A DNA stretch of 63,042 nt, the filler included, from Globobulimina sp. (taxonomy: Eukaryota), in the NCBI GenBank assembly GCA_003354225.1. It is 22 parts of 22 records of this genome, joined end to end, with 100 filler letters (N's around TTAATTAATTAA, not from the genome) between each part and the next. Parts side by side here need not be neighbours in the genome. Positions count along the whole stretch, not along the records: positions 17,229 to 19,999 come from PIVH01004957.1; 21 more parts are not named here. The stretch is one strand, 5' to 3'. A program made the position numbers and the translations under genes. The stretch's first letter is position 1. Each line of letters opens with the position of its first letter. Positions 5,645 to 60,274 of this stretch are shown here, in pieces. The notes under the pieces are model-generated. The model did not search any database. It was given only the letters and a program-made list of their open reading frames with translations, and was not told the origin of the DNA.

Positions 5645-5745
5645 NNNNNNNNNNNNNNNNNNNNNNNNNNNNNNNNNNNNNNNNNNNNTTAATTAATTAA
5701 NNNNNNNNNNNNNNNNNNNNNNNNNNNNNNNNNNNNNNNNNNNNG

Positions 5746-17088: not shown

Positions 17089-17229
17089 TAATTTTGTTTT
17101 TGTTGATATTTTGTTGTTGTGGTTTAGCNNNNNNNNNNNNNNNNNNNNNNNNNNNNNNNNNNNNNNNNNNNNTTAATTAATTAANNNNNNNNNNNNNNNN
17201 NNNNNNNNNNNNNNNNNNNNNNNNNNNNT

Positions 17230-17871
17230 GATGCGACGGTGCATGGTAACTGTGAATGGTATATTATGGGTGATATGAAGCTTCCGAATGTGGATAAATT
17301 GGAGCTACATTGTACTGAAATGGGACTGGATTATAATGGATAGGTAGATGGGGAGAATGAGGAAGTTTATTTTGATGTGGAGTTGCCGTGCCGGATGGTT
17401 TATGTTTATTTTTTGAGGGCAATAGCATGCAAAGTGAATGATGCATTTCAAGAGATTATACAGAATTTGTTCGGAGACTGGGTGTCGAGCGCAAAAATTA
17501 AAGGTGACAGCAGGATGCACGATAAACTGGACACGAATTATAAAGATAAGAAAATGCCAAAAGGAGCTCATATATTGGATGTTGTTCGATGTTTGATATC
17601 ATGTCCAACAACACAGGATGTTATTGCTGTGTATCGAAAATGTTGCGCCGCATTTACAGTGGTGAGAGTTAAGAATGGCTTTGCTTTGGATGCCGATGTT
17701 GAGTTTGGATATAGAACTGTGTTTGTCAATGTGTTGTATGAATCAAAGGACGGTAAAACGAGGCATATTTGTGAGATTCAAATAACGCTGGATCAAGTAG
17801 TGCATGTACGGCATTATATGCATATGTTTTATAAGTTTAGACGGGCGCAAGAACCCGAGAACTTATTATGA
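17230..17871 (+). CDS. 5'-partial protein with RelA/SpoT synthetase-like nucleotidyltransferase domain (in-frame TAG at 17341-17343)
   Basis: KIKGDSRMHDK, LDVVRC, VRVKNGF, GYRTVFVN, ICEIQ and H.FY..RR occur in the order of the RelA_SpoT Syn motifs. Confidence 0.65.
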
Positions 17872-18044
17872 ACATTACCATCTATTCATGATCAGTTGTG
17901 ATCGATCTAATTGATCGAGCAGAAGTTTATTAAAATCGAAAACTTTTTAATTTTCAAAATTTCAACCATGAAACGACTGCTTACCAAATCAGCCTATAAA
18001 CAAATTTCAAGAAACCACTCGTTTCAGTTGTCAGTTTTTTTTAA

Positions 18045-19997
18045 TTAATCACAACTACATTTCCCGTGGGAGAAGATATGCTTTCCATTGCGATCAAAAC
18101 ATGTAATAGTTTGATTAAAATATTTCGACATAGCAGCAAAAAATGAATGACAATCTTTGCACATTTTGAGTGAAATTGCAATTGAAATATCAATGTTATT
18201 ATTACTTTTTTCATGCAATAATATGGCTAATGCTTTTTTCTCAGAATGGTATTTTAAATGCAATTCACGCGTTTTTTTATTTGTTAGAGATCCAATAAGC
18301 ACTGAATTATCAATTAAATAATTACTTTCTTTCATTAATTGATGAACTTTATCCACTGATTTAAATTTACATTGATGATCAATTCCATTTTGTATAATCC
18401 ATTCTTTTCCATTTAATTCAAACATTGCAATTATATTACTTTCCAATTTTGATTCATTGATAGTTGGTTTTTGCAACAAATCCCACAAATATTTTTGAAA
18501 TTTACTGTCAATATTCTCGCAATTCAAAAATAAGGTTATTACTTCATATAACTGTAAATTATTTATATCAAAATGCATGAATTTATCCTCATCATTATTG
18601 GCAAAAATAATACAATTTCGATTATTCCTTTCCATGTTTATACATTGATTATTAACATAAGATTTGCAAAGAGAACATTGATACAAATACGAATTCGAAT
18701 GAATAATATCTAAAATATGTTGCATTCTTTCATTTCTATTTTCAGATTTAAGTAAAATATTTAATGCAGCAATATCGTGAGTAATTGTGTTATTTCTCAG
18801 TGTGATCTTATTATAAATCAACCACATTTCATTTAATTTATTAACGTTTGCTAAACCTTTTAAAATTTGATGAAATTCAACTGGCGATGCTTGTAACTCA
18901 TTTATCATATTTCTGTCAGCTACGATATCATTTATTAATTTATTAAACATCTCATTACAATGCACATTATCATATTTTGACAATGCTAAAATAGCAATAC
19001 AGTAACACTTTAAATCTGGTTTAACGCCCAATTTATTCACAACTTCATTCCAAACATTATAAATAAATGGAAACGTTTGTTGTTGCTTATGATATTGGTA
19101 ATATTTCGATGTTCTATGAATACAAATAAGTAACAATTCTAATGTCCGACTGTTAAATAACGAGCCAGCAGAATATTTATTGTTATTTAAAATATTTTCG
19201 ACATTCTGAGTCTGTCCCATTCTTTTAAAGTTTTCAAATAATGCTGTTAATGTGTATGGATTTGAGTTATTTCTTGAATTGATACTCACTTTGAAATATT
19301 CGTTGTTATAAAATATCAGCGCTGCCTCAATTGCACCATTATTTATATATCCTTTCATTACTTTTGCAACACTCAATATATCATTGATATTCCTCTCATT
19401 CATTTCATTGTAAATACTGATCATCTCAGAAATGTTCCTTTCGCCCACAAACATTCCATAAAAATCAATCAATATATTTGATAAATGATAATAATCATCA
19501 TTCAGACAAAAGGAATTTTCTTTTTCTTTTCTGACAGCGATTGCAGTATGAATTTCTTTGCCTTTTTCAAAATTACCATTTAAAAGACATGCTTTCATGG
19601 CTGAGATAAAAGTAACAATATTCCGTATGGAAATATCTGTTTCTTCATATAATGACAATGCATTGTCTGCCAATTTATTATCGATCAAAACAGTCATCAT
19701 TGCATTTATTATGATAATATCATTATTATTACAGGACATAAATAGTTTTTGTGCAGTATTGACATCACCAAAATGGCCATAAAACCCAATCAAACACGTT
19801 TTTAATTGAATGGAAACAGAATCGATCAAATGTTCAAAATAATTATGAATCTCTTGCCCTTTTTCAAAATTATTGCATTCAATGCATGCTTTTAATACTA
19901 ACACATTAATTATATCATTATTCAATGTTTTATATTCAAAATAATCATACATTGTTAACATTTGTTGATAACATTTATTATTTAATAAGGTTTGCAG
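18045..19997 (-). CDS. 5'-partial PLS-class PPR protein with C-terminal DYW cytidine-deaminase domain
   Basis: L/S/P-like PPR motifs (VLKACIECNNFEKGQEIH; LIGFYGHFGDVNTAQKLF; INAMMT..ADNALSLYEE; TFISAMKAC..FEKGKEIH). DYW block MKESNYLID..LKYHSEKKALA..SLKMCKDCHSFF..D.NGKHIFSHGKCSCD*. Frame is open to the contig end. Confidence 0.9.
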   Translation of the reverse strand: MQTLLNNKCYQQMLTMYDYFEYKTLNNDIINVLVLKACIECNNFEKGQEIHNYFEHLIDSVSIQLKTCLIGFYGHFGDVNTAQKLFMSCNNNDIIIINAMMTVLIDNKLADNALSLYEETDISIRNIVTFISAMKACLLNGNFEKGKEIHTAIAVRKEKENSFCLNDDYYHLSNILIDFYGMFVGERNISEMISIYNEMNERNINDILSVAKVMKGYINNGAIEAALIFYNNEYFKVSINSRNNSNPYTLTALFENFKRMGQTQNVENILNNNKYSAGSLFNSRTLELLLICIHRTSKYYQYHKQQQTFPFIYNVWNEVVNKLGVKPDLKCYCIAILALSKYDNVHCNEMFNKLINDIVADRNMINELQASPVEFHQILKGLANVNKLNEMWLIYNKITLRNNTITHDIAALNILLKSENRNERMQHILDIIHSNSYLYQCSLCKSYVNNQCINMERNNRNCIIFANNDEDKFMHFDINNLQLYEVITLFLNCENIDSKFQKYLWDLLQKPTINESKLESNIIAMFELNGKEWIIQNGIDHQCKFKSVDKVHQLMKESNYLIDNSVLIGSLTNKKTRELHLKYHSEKKALAILLHEKSNNNIDISIAISLKMCKDCHSFFAAMSKYFNQTITCFDRNGKHIFSHGKCSCD

Positions 19998-20612
19998 AAN
20001 NNNNNNNNNNNNNNNNNNNNNNNNNNNNNNNNNNNNNNNNNNNTTAATTAATTAANNNNNNNNNNNNNNNNNNNNNNNNNNNNNNNNNNNNNNNNNNNNG
20101 TTAGTGATTGGATTTGTATGTTTTCATGCCTTGTTAGCGTATTGTTATTGTTTTAGAAATAAAAAACAAATTACATCTCAAGATTTTATTAATTAATTTA
20201 GAATTATCTCTATTATCTCTACTATCTCTATTTTTCCTTTATATAATTGATTATTGTATTATTGAATTAATTAATTTTTCATTATTTATGTTTCTTCGAA
20301 AATTTGCATGTTCGTTCGTGTTACACCTTATACTATACTGAGGATGGTGGCAAGTCCTGGGGTCAGCACAAAGAATATCATCCTATGTTTGCCAACAAAA
20401 GCTCATTTCCGATATTAAAAACATTGATAAAGACAAAATTAAATATTTATAATATATTATATATTCTATACTCAAAATCGTTTTTTTCCAAAACAAGTTT
20501 GTTTTTTTTTGTTTCCAAACCTTGAAAACACTCTGAATCTGATATTCGGCAGTCGGCACAAAATAATTATAACAATTAAGAACCTCTTATTGGCTGTTTG
20601 CCATTTGTCGTT

Positions 20613-22372: not shown

Positions 22373-22442
22373 GGATCGCCTCAGGATTTGAACCTGAATC
22401 TTCTGGCCACCAATTCCAGTGCTCTTCTTGAGCTAAGCGACA
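22373..22442 (-). pseudogene. Degenerate tRNA-like sequence (possible anticodon TGG) or tRNA-derived SINE head
   Basis: The minus strand reads TGTCGCT TA GCTC AAGAA GAGC A CTGG..TTGG..CCAG AAGAT TCAGG TTCAAAT CCTGA GGCGATC. The T-arm/B-box is perfect, but the D-loop is short and lacks GG, and the anticodon arm is imperfect. Confidence 0.55.
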
Positions 22443-22970: not shown

Positions 22971-23215
22971 GTGTATGACTCACTACAAAATTCAATCAAT
23001 ATTTCCTGGCTCACTTTGCTTGCATTCATTCCATTATTCTTTATTAACACATTGAAATATTTTAAACTCACTGTTAATCTCTGTAAATAGGCGCAATTTG
23101 ATACAATTTCATCCTTTGACTTGTTACAATTTGTCGATATTTGCTTAAAAATTGTAAGGTCGATATCCGTGGATTTATTATTAGCTTTGTCATGTTTAGT
23201 TGCGTTGTTTGCCAT
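22971..23215 (-). CDS. 3'-partial hypothetical protein, near-identical paralog/allele of 31583-32040
   Basis: 22971-23175 matches 31733-31937 at 202 of 205 nt. Confidence 0.6.
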
Positions 23216-23675
23216 ATCATATGATGTTAATTGTAATGCAAATTGTTTGATTACTTATTAAATGTATTACAAAATGCAGTTATATTTTTTTTTGATAAGG
23301 AATTTGCTGAAAACACAGGGAAATAACAAAGGAGTGATACGATGATGCACTGAATTATTATATTATATTTTAAATGGATGGATTGTTATTGGTTTGTTTG
23401 TTTTGACGAATTGCAAATTAGATTGTGGTGATTTAATGCGATTAATACCAATATCTTGACCTAAAAGTGCTAATTCTTTACGGCTTTGTTGCTTTGTTCC
23501 TTGTGTGGGTTTATCTGCTTTGTTGGGTGCTTTGTATTTTTTGTTTTGGATCGATTCAAATTATTTATTATTAGATTAATTTGATCCTATTTTTGTACGT
23601 CGCTTAAAAAGTTGCGAAAGGATGGTATAGTGAGTAGTGAAGAAATTAAAAAAAAACAGTTCGAAAAAAACAACC

Positions 23676-25741
23676 ATGTCCCAATCCTCAAACTCAAACT
23701 CAAACTCATCCAACGCCCGTTTCCATTCCCGCTACAAACGAGACATGCAAGCCAGCCACATCTCATTCTCTCCAAACAGACGCCATCGTAATTCCAGGTT
23801 CAATCTCAATCTGAATACGACTCCCAATCCAATGAATCCATCCTTGCACAGAAACCTTGGCCACAATGACATGAATTCAAACTCGCCACGCCGCCAAGTT
23901 CTAACCCTCCACCAACGACCACCAAACCCACGGCCACATTTCACGCAGCCTCGGCCTCCAAACAACCGCATATTGCCACCACCACTCACTTCCCACCTCA
24001 TCGCCGCGCCGTATCCTCGCACTCATAACAACCACAACAACATTCGCAACAAACGCCGCAATGCAAACTTCCAAACCTCTGCGATCTCCATCATACCCAA
24101 CACGAACGAGACCGTCATGACTGTCTCAGACGAAACCTTCCGAGCTTTGATGCAAAAACAAGCCGCGTCCAAACACAACAAACCTAAAAGCAAAATAAAG
24201 CCCAAAATCAAAGCAAAGGCAAAAGCAAAAGCAAAACCAGCACCAAAAGCAAAGTTTAAACCTAAACCCAAAGCAAAGCCAAATAGCTCACCGCGGTCAT
24301 ACCGAACCCGCCGATCGCTGAACAATAACAGTTCCAATCGACGCAAACGCAAACGGACCGAAATCGAGCATGAGTTCCAAACCTTTGTGCCTTCGCTAAT
24401 TAACTTTGCCAACGACGATGAGTATGAGATCGACGCCGACACCAATTATGATATTGGTATTATTAATTACAATGTGGACAGTTTCAGTTACAATGACAAC
24501 GACATCGAAGAAGGAGAGATTGCGGTGATTGAGGAAGGGGAAGTCGTCGACATTGGACATAAGCGGAAACGGAGGAAGTTGAACGAAAATGTAAATGGTG
24601 GCCATGGCGGCGAGACCGAGACCGAGAGAGTGCAGGACGACGACGAGAAGAGCAATGCGGTGAAATCTGACGATGTGACTCGAGTGGAAATGGAAGGGAA
24701 TGTCATGCCGTCCTCGTTGGTGCCGTACACGCCGTCTTCGGAGGATAATTATAACGCATCTGAGAATGGCGTGGGTGTAGGACGGGATCCGTTGAGTAGT
24801 CCCGATTTGAGCGATGTGTCTGTGCCGAGGGCCAAGATCGAGATCGAATTCGAAGCACAAGTGGCTGGGCCCGAAGTGGTGGGGAATGAGCTGAAAACGA
24901 ATAAGGAAGACATGGATTATGAGCAAAAAACGCAGACACAAACACATCAGGAAAGAGACGAAGCCGTCGACAAAGACATGGATAATAATGAGAATAAGGA
25001 GAAGTATGAAGAAAAGGACTTGAAATACAGAGAGAGGGCGGATGAAGAGAATGAATGTGAGGGCTCGAAGGTGCGTGGGAGAGGAAGATGGAGGGATCGA
25101 TGGAAGGACAGAGAGAAAGCGAAGGGTGGCAATAAGGAGAAGGAGAAGGAGAGAGATAAGGAGAGGAAATACGAGAAATACCATCACAAATCCTCATCTT
25201 CGTCGTCGTCGTCGTCCCGTTCCTCGCGAAGTGATAAACATGCAAAGAAATACAATGATGACAGGCCTGACCGGAGAGAGAGAGACAGATATCGGGAGAG
25301 TGAGAATAAGCGGAAATCAGATAAACACAGAGATAGATCGAAGGAAAGAGAGAGAGACGCCGGGACAGAGAGAAAAGTAAAGAGCGGGGAAAGGATAAAA
25401 AGGATGGAAGCAATGATAAACATGAAAAGAATAAAAAAATAAAGGAGGAGAATAGCAATGACAGTCCACACAGAGACAGAGATAGAGAGAAAGTCGCAGA
25501 TTTAAAGGAAAAGCTTATTGAAAATAAATCAAATCATACTCCACGAACTCGAAGGGACACAGATAACAAATACGATGATAAAAATCGAGAGCGAGATCGA
25601 AAAGACAGAGACAAAGATAAACATAAAACCACTGACAAATACTATGAAAATAAGGACAAAAAATCCGAGGATTTGGCAGATCAAAATAGCAAAAAAACAC
25701 CAGTTGAAGAAAAAACAGCTGCTGTAATCACTAAAAACGAT
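23676..25741 (+). CDS. 3'-partial low-complexity Arg/Asp/Glu/Lys/Ser-rich (RS/RD-like) nuclear protein, with an apparent frameshift at ~25350
   Basis: ATG at 23676; KRKRRK NLS-like motifs. After the (AG)n run another frame continues RRRDREKSKERGKDKKDG.. open to the contig end. Confidence 0.65.
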
Positions 25742-34352: not shown

Positions 34353-34994
34353 NNNNNNNNNNNNNNNNNNNNNNNNNNNNNNNNNNNNNNNNNNNNTTAA
34401 TTAATTAANNNNNNNNNNNNNNNNNNNNNNNNNNNNNNNNNNNNNNNNNNNNTTTAAACCGTTATTATTTGAATTATTTCCAAATATGAATGAAATAATA
34501 ATTATTACAGATGAATATTTTACATTTAATATTTACAATTTATTAGCAATTATTAATTCAGCAATATTACCAAAAACATTTGATCGAATAATAATTAAAG
34601 ATCCAAGAGCTGAGTGGTTAGAGAGTGTATTTTCAGATGAAATGCGTTGTAAATTTGTTGAGAGTAATTTTTTTGTTAAGTTAAGAAAACAAGAATTAAC
34701 AATTTGTAAAAGTAAATAATTACTTTCTCACTTTTTAATAATTATTTTTATTTTCTCTTTTTCATTTTCATTGCTTCTTTTGAGCTGTATTTTTTTTGAA
34801 TAATTTTTGTTTGAATTTTCTTTTTAATTTGAATATTCAAGCGCTGTTTTTTGCTCCTTGCATTTTAATTCAAAAAAAAAATGTGAAAAAAAAATAATTA
34901 ATATTATTAATAATTAAAAATACGTTATAAATAACATAATATCAGGTCAGGTCAGGTCAGATAAGATTGAATAATATGTCAATTAATTAATTAA

Positions 34995-37136
34995 TTATTG
35001 TATAATATGTCCATTGGCATCGACATCTCCTTTACATTTGGAATACTGATCCAATTTGACGGAGGACTCATCGATGATAACTTGGTGATATTCATTCTTC
35101 AAATTGATGCTCGGCATAATGGTCGGATACCAGTTCCAGTAATCGGCGAAGGACAAGATGGAGGGCACCAAAATGGGCCGAATGATGAAGGTGTCGACGA
35201 GCACTCCGAGCACGAAAATAAAGCCAAATTGGGCGCAGCTCGGAATAGATTCCAGTAAAAAGCCGGCAAACGCCAATGTCATACAAATGCCGGCGGACGA
35301 GATCACCGGACCCGTTGTCGAGATGGCCAATATGATGGACGCTCGCGTCGTGTAATTATATTTCGATCTATATTCAAAGACTCGCGAATATAAAAAAATC
35401 TCATAATCCAAAGCGAGCCCTAACAACAAGGACAGGGACAATATGGGCGTGGCCCAAACCAAACCACCAGACTCGTACAAGCCTTTATAGCCATTGATGT
35501 TGGTCCAATTCAGCCAGCCTTTGTTGTAGACGCCGGTACAAAAGCCGTACACGAACATAATCGGAATCACTATGCACATCAATAAGCGGAAGGGCAGAAA
35601 AAAGGACTTGAAAGCGATGCCAATCAGAATGAAGATCAGCGACAACATCACAACCAAGCATAGCGGCAAGCGGTCATACTCCATCTGCAACAAATCAATC
35701 TGCCAAAACATCTCACTGTGCACATAGATATCCATCGAGTCGCTGTACAACGCGGCTGTGGATTGCATGAAATCGCGCCATTCCTCGGCGTGTTTCTGCG
35801 CAGTGTCACTGAAGGGGTCAAACGAAGGCGTCACCATAATCAATGACGCATTTTGCCCCTCATTCACTGTGCCAGCAAAGCTCTCGAAATATAGCCGATA
35901 AAAGGAGCTGTCGTACTTTTCTTTGTTGTTCACAATCGAATGTATTTGCGATTGGTTGCGGAAACAATTGATTTTCGACACATTGGCCGCGTCGGACACG
36001 AATGCAAACGAAGTCATGTCGGTATTGTTGGTGTAGCCCTTTGCGATCAATGCCTTTCCAAACGAACACATATCATCGAAATAAGCTTGATTCCATATGC
36101 TATGTTGCCCGTTTTTCGCCACACTTAATATCGTAATTGGTTGCAACACGCCGGGCTTGAAATTACTTTTGATTTTGGAATATGCGGAGACCGACGCTGC
36201 CTTGGCCGGAAAGGACAAATCTGGCGACATCGTGGTCTGCCAATCCACCAATTGATACAACACCGGCGACATACACAAATATATCAAAATCGGCAGCAAA
36301 TATTTCCAGGGGAAGGCAGTGACGGTTTGCCCCAATTTGAAATAGAAATTGTTATCCAAACTTTGCTCGTCTCCCAATTCATTCTGACCCGCTGCTAATT
36401 CGTCAATCGAGTCAAGCAAATTCAGCTCGCTTTTGCCTGCATCTCCTTCCTTTTTGCAACAACATTTGAGCCACTTCGGAATGCGTTCGATGTCCGTAAA
36501 GAAATTGGGAAACAGCAATAACAAGGAAGTGGTCACCGTGATGGACACCGTCATACTAAAAAAAACGCCCACGGCGATGGCGTAACTGGCTGAGTCCAAT
36601 CCGCTTCCCGGGAAAAATAAACCAAATCCGATTTCCAACAGAATTAAGATGGAGCCACTTAACACGATCACGTGTCCAGAATATTGCAACATGTCTTTGA
36701 CTGCGTCATCGACGGATAACTTTTTCACTTGAATGCCAGTTATAAATCTGTACAGTGACACGCTTAGAATTATGAATGCAGCGAGAAACTATAAAATCAA
36801 ATACCTGCTCAATAGGAACATCCCGTAATCCACGCAAATGGCCATGGATACAAACAACATAAACGGCGGCGATTCCGGCGATACGTCCATGGCGTTTTGC
36901 GCGATGAGATCGAACAAGGCAAAGGATTGGCAAATCACCATAACGAAGCATAGAAAGGGCAGCAACACCAATTTGTAAGAACCAATCACCGTAATCATAA
37001 ACAGCAACATTACCGGTATGAAGACCATGTCCGTCGAGGTGATGTCTTTGGTGATCACACGAATGCAGTCCTGGCCCATAGTGACCCAGCCCGTTAACTC
37101 GAAGTTGTAATCATTGGCAATGGCGTTGCTGCCCAC
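34995..37136 (-). CDS. MMPL/RND-family membrane transporter, 5'-partial (intron 36748-36804)
   Basis: Two pseudo-repeats with AICVDYGMFLLSR|F and GLALDYEIFLYSRVFE; also TGPVISSAGICM..AFAG and GVLVDTFIIRPILVP. Confidence 0.85.
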
Positions 37137-37816
37137 GAACGTATCCAGAATGTCATTGATGTCGTCTATGAAAGTTTGGATTTGTTTGGAGGTCCAAAGT
37201 GATTATGAATAGCATGATATTGNNNNNNNNNNNNNNNNNNNNNNNNNNNNNNNNNNNNNNNNNNNNTTAATTAATTAANNNNNNNNNNNNNNNNNNNNNN
37301 NNNNNNNNNNNNNNNNNNNNNNCATCAGAATCATTGAGAAGCGGTTTTGATACATTATTATTTGTGGCGAATTCTAATTAAAAAAAGTGCAGATGTATAA
37401 ATTCTAGCTATACATTATGGTCTTAACGTTGTGTAACATGAGTATTATTATACAATGCATTTGAATGTGAACAAAATGCAACAATAACAAATAACAACCA
37501 TTTGGATATCTCAACCATTGTTTTTTTTAACATTTATAAAGATGACGACTTTTTTTAGCACACTCAACAATTTTATATATCCACACTCAACAAAGGTGCT
37601 ACAAATAACAATTTTGTATCTCATTCGTTGTTTTTTACCAGTTTAAGCTGATGCACTTAGACAATTTGTACATGTTTATGGTCAAAGAACGTTTTTCAAA
37701 ATGTATTGTCCCTGGTGTGCGAGGATAATCTAAAAACGCAGGTACGGGGAATTTATATAATTATAAAAAATATAACTGTGTATTATTAATTAAGAAAAAT
37801 ATTTTACAAAAGCAGA

Positions 37817-59969: not shown

Positions 59970-60274
59970 TGAACGTGAAGCGAAAACTTTTTTAAGTGTA
60001 AATAAATATATATATAAAAATTCAATACAGTCGTAACTAAGCCAAAAAGTGCAATGGATATAGTTAGATTTGATTATGAAGACACAGTAGAACATGTAAT
60101 GAAAACACATAAACGAAAGGTATCTCAATTAGCATCATTAGAACAAGAATTGGGTTTATATTTTGATGAAGAAGNNNNNNNNNNNNNNNNNNNNNNNNNN
60201 NNNNNNNNNNNNNNNNNNTTAATTAATTAANNNNNNNNNNNNNNNNNNNNNNNNNNNNNNNNNNNNNNNNNNNN

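Follow-up and report, generated by a model that had tools for sequence, protein, structure and literature searches.

A 63,042-base window of DNA from the Globobulimina sp. assembly GCA_003354225.1 carries, at 18045-19997 on the minus strand, a gene encoding a pentatricopeptide repeat (PPR) protein of the PLS type that ends in a DYW-type cytidine deaminase domain, the active site of which is predicted to be complete. PPR-DYW proteins are the cytidine-to-uridine (C-to-U) editing enzymes of plant organelles, and they serve as tools for programmable RNA editing. Phylogenetic analysis places the protein encoded in the window in a divergent clade of DYW domains with short C-terminal tails, of which the only named members are foraminiferal, and its architecture suggests that it is probably a site-specific editing factor of the mitochondrion. 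The gene lies on one contig of 2771 nt (17229-19999, no strand), delimited from the map of N-runs and by splitting the window, and its coding frame comprises 650 codons plus stop with an open 5' end (18045-19997, minus strand, by translation of the open reading frame, ORF).

The DYW deaminase domain

The deaminase domain spans residues 518-650 (18048-18446, minus strand), as defined by the Pfam family PF14432, matches to Protein Data Bank (PDB) sequences and a structure model, and it takes in two N-terminal strands at the position of the PG box as well as a gating insert. Pfam DYW_deaminase (PF14432) matched residues 562-637 of the 638-residue form that starts at the first ATG, with 47.1 bits (E 2.1e-12), well above its cutoff of 24 bits, and all 13 members of the family alignment were matched by it as well. 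A phmmer search against all PDB sequences detected the DYW domain of OTP86 (7o4e, E 7.8e-10), a synthetic PPR-DYW protein (9kfx, E 3.8e-9) and DYW1 (7w86, E 1.2e-7), while the nearest clusters in the ESM Atlas were rotifer and plant PPR-DYW proteins, which confirms the kind of protein involved.

The catalytic zinc of OTP86 is described as bound by H892, C920 and C923, with E894 as the catalytic residue, and its second, structural zinc as bound by H924, H947, C954 and C956 (PMC7611903). All seven of these metal ligands and the catalytic glutamate have counterparts in the window protein, whose two zinc sites are predicted from sequence. The counterparts reside in three motifs on the minus strand. 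HSE at 18240-18248 holds the ligand H584 of the first zinc (Zn1) and the catalytic E586, aligned to OTP86 H892/E894; CKDCH at 18147-18161 holds the Zn1 ligands C613 and C616 and the second-zinc (Zn2) ligand H617, aligned to C920/C923/H924; and KHIFSHGKCSCD at 18048-18083, which includes KHIF at 18072-18083 and CSCD at 18048-18059, holds the Zn2 ligands H640, C647 and C649, aligned to H947/C954/C956. Within the 13-sequence family alignment H584, E586, C613, C616 and H617 are invariant, and H640, C647 and C649 are at least 90% conserved. The same alignment contains a further family-invariant cysteine, C633.

A first-pass annotation of this DNA had described a PLS-PPR-DYW protein with an intact deaminase site, and its description is borne out by the PF14432 match (E 2.1e-12), by the profile comparison given below (E 2.4e-37) and by the presence of all ligands, with HSE located where it had placed it and CKDC likewise present. 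Its second zinc site, written as H..H.F..G.CSC, holds with respect to the ligands H617, H640, C647 and C649, with the amendment that just the first histidine of the plant HHF motif is retained; this is H640, the histidine that binds Zn2 in OTP86. The end in CSCD without a DYW tripeptide was also read correctly, as CSCD at 18048-18059 is followed by TAA at 18045-18047.

An AlphaFold2 model computed from a 150-row alignment had a mean predicted local distance difference test (pLDDT) score of 82.1 and a predicted template modelling score of 0.70, with pLDDT values of mostly 82-96 in the DYW domain. The deaminase fold with a gating insert of about 55 residues is present in this predicted model, and residues 521-650 superposed on residues 825-957 of OTP86 (7o4f_A) with Z 16.6 and a root-mean-square deviation (rmsd) of 2.7 Å over 122 residues at 28% identity. 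Comparable matches were obtained with DYW1 (7w86; Z 15.1, rmsd 2.2 Å, 108 residues) and with the synthetic PPR-DYW protein 9kfx_A (Z 19.7), and the top rank in Foldseek was the RNA-bound synthetic PPR-DYW protein (E 4.8e-15).

The PPR repeats and the pre-DYW module

Residues 1-243 (19269-19997, minus strand) constitute the PLS-type PPR repeats, which were assigned by hhalign, by helix pairs in the model, and by matches to the structure 5iww_D and the family TIGR00756. The tract begins within a P-like repeat and continues in the order L-S-P-L-S-P. Alignment by hhalign of the 13-sequence family with a profile of 16 proteins carrying plant-type tails, one of them named (Apostasia), gave 488 colinear columns from the PLS repeats to the end of the DYW domain (probability 99.9, E 2.4e-37), in which residues 7-122 align to a P-L-S-P stretch of the plant-type profile. 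The model is helix-hairpin throughout residues 1-433, and its helix pairs of about 36, 31 and 33 residues support the PLS order. Moreover, the designer PLS protein 5iww_D matched residues 26-357 of the model with Z 15.8, and NCBIfam TIGR00756 scored above its cutoff (22.9 versus 20 bits).

The repeats are followed by a degenerate PPR/E-like helical module (residues 244-517; 18447-19268, minus strand), recognised from the family alignment and from hhalign. This region had earlier been characterised as a long divergent helical stretch, of which the helical nature stands and the divergence needs amendment, as the region can be aligned in order, apart from large insertions, with the helical stretch that comes before the DYW domain in the plant-type profile. 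The plant counterpart of this region we take to be the P2-L2-S2-E1-E2 part of the consensus. Six residues of the module, W316, C331, C333, S340, Q377 and Y395, are invariant in the 13 sequences. Between the helical module and the DYW domain lies an insert with four cysteines, C-x2-C-x7-C-x10-C (residues 441-462; 18612-18677, minus strand), which is seen in the alignment and in a low-confidence part of the model (pLDDT about 49-64 over residues 431-480). Of the 13 aligned proteins only the window protein and two relatives, P0014 and P0001, have this Cys4 insert, which may form an extra zinc knuckle.

Reading frame and integrity of the gene

The 650 codons are free of any stop or frame break, and the TAA stop (18045-18047, minus strand) directly after CSCD was found both in the ORF and in a public Logan contig (run X1, record 5) that spans 17973-18607 without gaps. 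From the first ATG the ORF runs from 19961 to 18045 on the minus strand and encodes 638 amino acids. Upstream of this ATG the frame is open to 19997, two bases short of the contig end at 19999, and the 12 extra residues extend the repeat pattern. Because the contig stops while the frame is still open, the gene is truncated on the 5' side and its product lacks the N-terminus. Another Logan contig of run X1 (record 8) reaches further, since the first 662 of its 966 letters correspond to 19338-19999 and are followed by 304 nt beyond 19999.

Run X1 covers all 30 bins and is possibly the source sample, hence it does not count as independent support. Near-identical pieces of the gene are present in run X2, which belongs to a separate study, and its records 11, 12, 13 and 16 differ from the window by 1, 3, 0 and 1 letters, respectively. 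Among the listed holders of the gene, no RNA data set was found to carry it; run X6, which is RNA by guess, covers the neighbouring ORF and just scraps of the PPR-DYW gene. A tblastn search of the protein against all 22 contigs of the window returned its own contig only, with all remaining matches at E >= 0.66. A diverged copy of 18795-19367 was encountered in run X1 (record 7), with 43 changed letters and 11 gaps in 573 nt, which suggests a paralog or a second allele.

Relatives and phylogeny

A word-indexed search, in which 7,999 proteins were scored, yielded 13 matches at E <= 1e-3. The best of these was P0001, a metagenome protein of 1058 amino acids with 36% identity, which is colinear with the window protein over its residues 426-1052 and carries about 420 residues of further PLS-like repeats upstream; the only named matches were two orchid proteins at 20-23% identity. 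The same search with residues 500-638 gave 126 candidates, none at E <= 1e-3, which apparently reflects a limit of the index, because a full scan found hundreds. In this full scan, residues 232-638 were compared with 1.84 billion representatives, and 551 matches were obtained at E <= 1e-3, 62 at <= 1e-10 and 17 at <= 1e-30, the best being P0014 with 46% identity over query residues 6-405. Names were looked up for 30 of the best 150 of these 551 matches. Six of the 30 belong to Nonionella stella (Rhizaria, Retaria, Foraminifera; EukProt, P0015, P0016, P0030, P0031, P0042 and P0049) and one to the amoebozoan Soliformovum (P0119), the other looked-up rows being unnamed or carrying a generic label.

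For phylogenetic analysis, the relatives P0001-P0164 served as input, 146 of which had a domain match. After one duplicate cluster member had been dropped, the tree kept the 102 sequences whose match to the 133-residue domain began no later than position 45 and stopped no more than 8 residues short of its end, and with the window protein added it comprised 103 rows. The tree is unrooted, and with 144 columns for 103 rows many of its inner forks are unresolved; named heterolobosean, Physarum, paradinid, fungal, rotifer and diplonemid sequences stand outside it. In the IQ-TREE analysis (quick mode, LG+C20), the window protein falls in a clade of 10 rows with P0027, P0033, P0037, P0014, P0001 and the Nonionella protein P0015, at a Shimodaira-Hasegawa-like approximate likelihood ratio (SH-aLRT) of 99. 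This clade is nested in a short-tailed clade of 48 rows (SH-aLRT 98), in which every tail ends a few residues from a CxC or CxxC motif and no DYW tripeptide occurs, and which takes in all five Nonionella stella rows of the tree. Plant-type tails form a separate clade of 49 rows (SH-aLRT 98) that includes the orchid and Soliformovum rows. FastTree recovered the same 10-, 48- and 49-row groupings at 97, 86 and 98, respectively.

The divergent DYW family that had been postulated at first reading thus appears as the 48-row clade, apart from the plant-type clade. Nesting within plant or algal sequences at high identity was not observed, as identity amounts to 28% with OTP86 and 20% with the best named plant match, and the clades are separate.

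Seven relatives of 480-590 amino acids (P0015, P0017, P0020, P0021, P0023, P0025 and P0029) keep the conserved pre-DYW module and have few or undetectable PPR repeats, which recalls plant DYW proteins that are supplied in trans. A DYW protein of another type, 1199 amino acids in length, is encoded on a metagenome contig (L004, 775-4374, plus strand); it has a long non-PPR N-terminal extension rich in Ser, Asn and Gln and a Trp-rich tail past CSC, and it shows further DYW diversity in environmental eukaryotes.

Proposed function and alternative explanations

The region would represent approximately the 3'-terminal two-thirds of a nuclear gene from a protist with AT-rich, intron-poor DNA. The PPR tract of its product would bind a specific single-stranded RNA sequence in an organelle, most likely the mitochondrion, and this binding would position the deaminase at a cytidine lying a few nucleotides further 3', which the Zn1 site (H584, C613 and C616) together with E586 would deaminate to uridine. 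In plants, the PPR tract is reported to read the RNA and to put the DYW domain on a cytidine some four nucleotides downstream, and complete PPR-DYW proteins are reported to edit without other plant factors (bioRxiv 10.64898/2026.09.04.749523). We infer catalytic activity, organellar location and target sites by analogy. A role as site-specific mitochondrial C-to-U editing factor is favoured, and is rather likely to be correct, because mitochondrial C-to-U editing goes together with DYW families in Naegleria (PMC4758236), Acrasis (PMC4202320) and paradinids (PMC11946409).

Several observations weigh against this role. The chain stops one residue past the last cysteine (CSCD, then TAA) and has no terminal DYW tripeptide, and in the profile alignment ES stands where plant domains have the PG dipeptide. 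Variation of the PG box and of the tripeptide is reported for non-plant DYW domains (PMC13386178), the model predicts two strands at the PG-box position (residues 523-528 and 531-536), and data on tail deletion were not found in the PPR56 mutational paper. At the position of OTP86 K915, which is Lys in the plant-type consensus, the window protein has I608, and the residue is hydrophobic in 13 of 13 family members; K915 is described as locking the catalytic glutamate in inactive OTP86 and as restricted to DYW domains (PMC7611903). The single-repeat Pfam models remained below their cutoffs (PPR_2, 23.7 versus 30; PPR, 21.4 versus 25), and Pfam E_motif (PF20431) matched neither the window protein nor the family members. 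The N-terminus, with any targeting presequence, lies beyond the contig end, and a crude presequence-like start, defined as at most one acidic and at least three basic residues in the first 30, was seen in 8 of 24 longer relatives, for which metagenome gene starts are unreliable. Finally, the activity of a protist DYW protein is reported to have been shown just via knock-down of Diplonema PPRD1 (bioRxiv 10.64898/2026.09.04.749523).

The absence of the terminal DYW, of PG and of a counterpart to K915 would also be expected of a non-catalytic or decaying copy, either an RNA-binding PPR protein with a dead deaminase or a pseudogene fragment, and the gene has been seen only in truncated form, with a diverged copy in the same sample (record 7 of run X1; 43 letters and 11 gaps over 573 nt). 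Such a copy is nevertheless improbable, because every ligand is conserved across sequences at 25-39% identity: the seven metal ligands and the catalytic glutamate are invariant or nearly so in the 13 members, which implies purifying selection. Moreover, 650 codons are free of stops in DNA of 27% GC, the truncation is accounted for by the contig end, past which a public contig continues, and the short tail is common to the whole 48-row clade rather than being a private lesion. An origin of the gene in foreign DNA, be it from a plant, an alga, prey or another eukaryote instead of the main organism, would fit the mixed appearance of the assembly. Three of the 22 contigs (1-2772, 22971-25741 and 34453-37222) have a GC content at third codon positions (GC3) of 0.53-0.60 and codon-usage correlations of 0.23-0.40, and an MMPL-family transporter (E 2.4e-29) is encoded on one of them; these contigs may derive from another organism or represent a gene class of their own, and the assembly may be mixed. 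In addition, runs X1 and X2, the two best holders of the gene, are filed under different organism labels. Against this, identity to plant-type DYW domains is just 26-28%, the window domain falls outside the plant-type clade, and the DYW ORF (26.6% GC, GC3 0.23) correlates in relative synonymous codon usage with the pooled longest ORFs of the other 21 contigs at r = 0.84, the joint highest value of the 22, which renders a foreign origin very improbable. The claim of the first-pass annotation that the composition of the gene matches the host contigs had been argued as if from one locus, yet the contigs are unlinked; in codon usage the DYW ORF does match the AT-rich majority of them.

The main rival is an active organellar deaminase that departs from the scheme of one protein for one C-to-U site, acting with partners on many sites or on other bases (A-to-I, U-to-C), as has been proposed for PPRD1, the single PPR-DYW protein of Diplonema, and possibly together with the family members of about 500 amino acids in which PPR repeats are scarce or escape detection. 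This mode of action is hinted at because of the many PPR-poor members of that size and the missing gate lysine: many family proteins have about 480-540 amino acids and are short upstream of the conserved module, PPR_2 is matched by 9 of the 13 aligned members, and the lysine that gates OTP86 is absent throughout the family. The family-invariant C633 and the Cys4 insert of the sub-clade point in the same direction, and knock-down of Diplonema PPRD1 is reported to lower both C-to-U and A-to-I editing (bioRxiv 10.64898/2026.09.04.749523). The window protein itself, however, bears PLS-type repeats, and P0001, its closest full-length relative, has several hundred residues more of these, as would suit a factor that recognises a particular sequence; the family has expanded, a trait of lineages that use one factor per site; and the active site is of the cytidine deaminase type. 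On balance, this broader mode of action appears unlikely, though less so than a dead copy, and site-specific mitochondrial C-to-U editing is retained as the preferred explanation.

Other features of the window

The N-run map and splitting at the junctions revealed that the window is made up of 22 contigs of 2768-2772 nt in order of descending length, separated by 21 linkers, one per approximately 2870 nt (2773-2872, 5645-5744 and so on to 60175-60274). Each linker, such as that at 20000-20099 (no strand), is an artificial element of 100 nt without biological meaning, composed of 44 N, TTAATTAATTAA and 44 N, where TTAATTAATTAA is a 12-mer with a stop in every frame. Because the remaining pieces are unlinked contigs, the other genes of the window are not neighbours of the PPR-DYW gene, and because the window consists of 22 joined contigs, arguments from neighbourhood or from composition along the window are invalid.

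The contig of the PPR-DYW gene also contains a convergent ORF of 164 amino acids at 17377-17871 (plus strand), for which a by-eye impression of a RelA/SpoT-type motif was discarded, as the ORF matched no Pfam family. In run X2 the region of this ORF has a word depth of 28-48 versus 3.5-9 across the PPR-DYW gene, and the ORF is present in run X6 at about 95% identity; it may belong to a repeated or multi-copy element. On the other contigs, long uninterrupted frames encode a kinesin, a protein kinase, a RING finger protein, an alpha-galactosidase and a RAD54B-like helicase, and on one contig a match to the Ras family and a BTB domain occur in neighbouring ORFs. None of the 120 matches listed for the RAD54B-like protein exceeds 44% identity, with sequences from plants, amoebae, fungi and animals alike at about 40-45%, so that the collection contains no closely related sequenced organism. 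An Rfam scan of the window did not detect an rRNA marker, and its single match was a tRNA at 22373-22442 (minus strand) that barely exceeds the threshold (31.3 versus 29 bits).

Relation to the literature and significance

Mitochondrial genomes of Foraminifera have been described just recently. One foraminiferal mitogenome paper contains no discussion of RNA editing (PMC13421374), and another cites RNA editing in other lineages only, while suggesting stop-codon read-through or post-transcriptional modification of the mRNA at a conserved cox1 frameshift in Miliolida (PMC10127745). Among the papers listed in literature searches on Foraminifera, Reticulomyxa, Retaria, Radiolaria and Nonionella, judged in part by their titles, no report of foraminiferal DYW or PPR proteins was found, nor was any report of base-conversion editing in Foraminifera. 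The view, taken in the first-pass annotation, that DYW proteins are sporadic outside plants is dated, since DYW domains are now reported in Amoebozoa, Discoba, Fungi, Metazoa, Alveolata, Haptista and Rhizaria, with 31 of them counted in Rhizaria in a survey of 2026 (PMC13386178), and those of paradinids were reported in 2025 (PMC11946409). The presence of DYW domains in Rhizaria is therefore already known and not new in principle, and the window gene or its family may already be among the 31 rhizarian domains of PMC13386178.

The scattered occurrence of PPR-DYW proteins outside plants is relevant to the question of whether the system has an ancient origin or owes its distribution to gene transfer, and the gene described here contributes a well-supported case from a divergent clade with a link to Foraminifera. 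It leads to the prediction of C-to-U differences between mitochondrial DNA and RNA in these protists, and these natural DYW variants, in which both the tail and the gate lysine are missing, could inform the regulation of the deaminase. As a tentative extension, which at present is rather doubtful, the clade could represent a large undescribed foraminiferal or retarian family of short-tailed DYW deaminases, characterised by a CxC or CxxC end, no gate lysine, a pre-DYW module of its own and many PPR-poor members of about 500 amino acids. If this were true, C-to-U or broader RNA editing would be widespread and unreported in retarian mitochondria, the recognition of targets might be shared out among PLS-rich members, such as the window protein, and PPR-poor deaminases that work in trans, and regulation of the enzyme might differ from the 'gated zinc shutter' of plants.

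Comparison with known systems

The land-plant PLS-E-DYW factors, exemplified by Arabidopsis OTP86 and Physcomitrium PPR56 (structures 7o4e/7o4f and 9kfx), share with the window protein the colinear arrangement of PLS repeats, helical linker and DYW domain, the HxE...CxDCH active site, the second zinc site of the H/H/C/C type and the predicted fold with its gating insert. The window protein differs from them by a domain identity of 26-28%, the lack of a DYW tripeptide, ES in place of PG, Ile in place of K915, the invariant C633, a linker enlarged by insertions that include the Cys4 element, and the lack of a Pfam E_motif match.

Among non-plant systems, the Heterolobosea Naegleria gruberi and Acrasis kona as well as Physarum resemble the present case as protists with lineage-expanded PPR-DYW families, and these families have been linked to mitochondrial C-to-U editing (PMC4758236, PMC4202320, bioRxiv 10.64898/2026.09.04.749523). 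The one named amoebozoan row of the tree, Soliformovum P0119, has a plant-like tail and stands in the plant-type clade, apart from the window protein. Paradinids (Ascetosporea, Rhizaria) fall in the supergroup from which the sole named relatives of the window protein come, and are reported to combine mitochondrial C-to-U with A-to-I editing (PMC11946409); their domains, compared here by description only, are reported to have a deletion in common with fungal ones and to group with these (PMC11946409). Diplonema papillatum PPRD1 is likewise a protist PPR-DYW protein with a canonical catalytic centre, and reportedly the only protist one with functional data, obtained by knock-down (bioRxiv 10.64898/2026.09.04.749523). 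By description, PPRD1 differs in being single-copy, with an atypical PPR array, extra N-terminal domains and a PolX-like partner, DAPX1, whereas the family of the window protein is expanded and PLS-like.

The closest resemblance is to the short-tailed family that includes the Nonionella stella proteins, with which the window protein shares the clade (SH-aLRT 98), the pre-DYW module, the short C-terminus after the last cysteine and the motif I-x-C-x-D-P-x-G-x-H-x-F. In whole-protein alignments, identity to members of this family is 30-39%, the best value overall being the 46% to P0014. Within the short-tailed clade a CxxC end occurs in 24 of 48 rows, whereas the window protein ends in CSC, and many members have about 500 amino acids with few or no detectable PPR repeats, unlike the window protein with its PLS-type tract.

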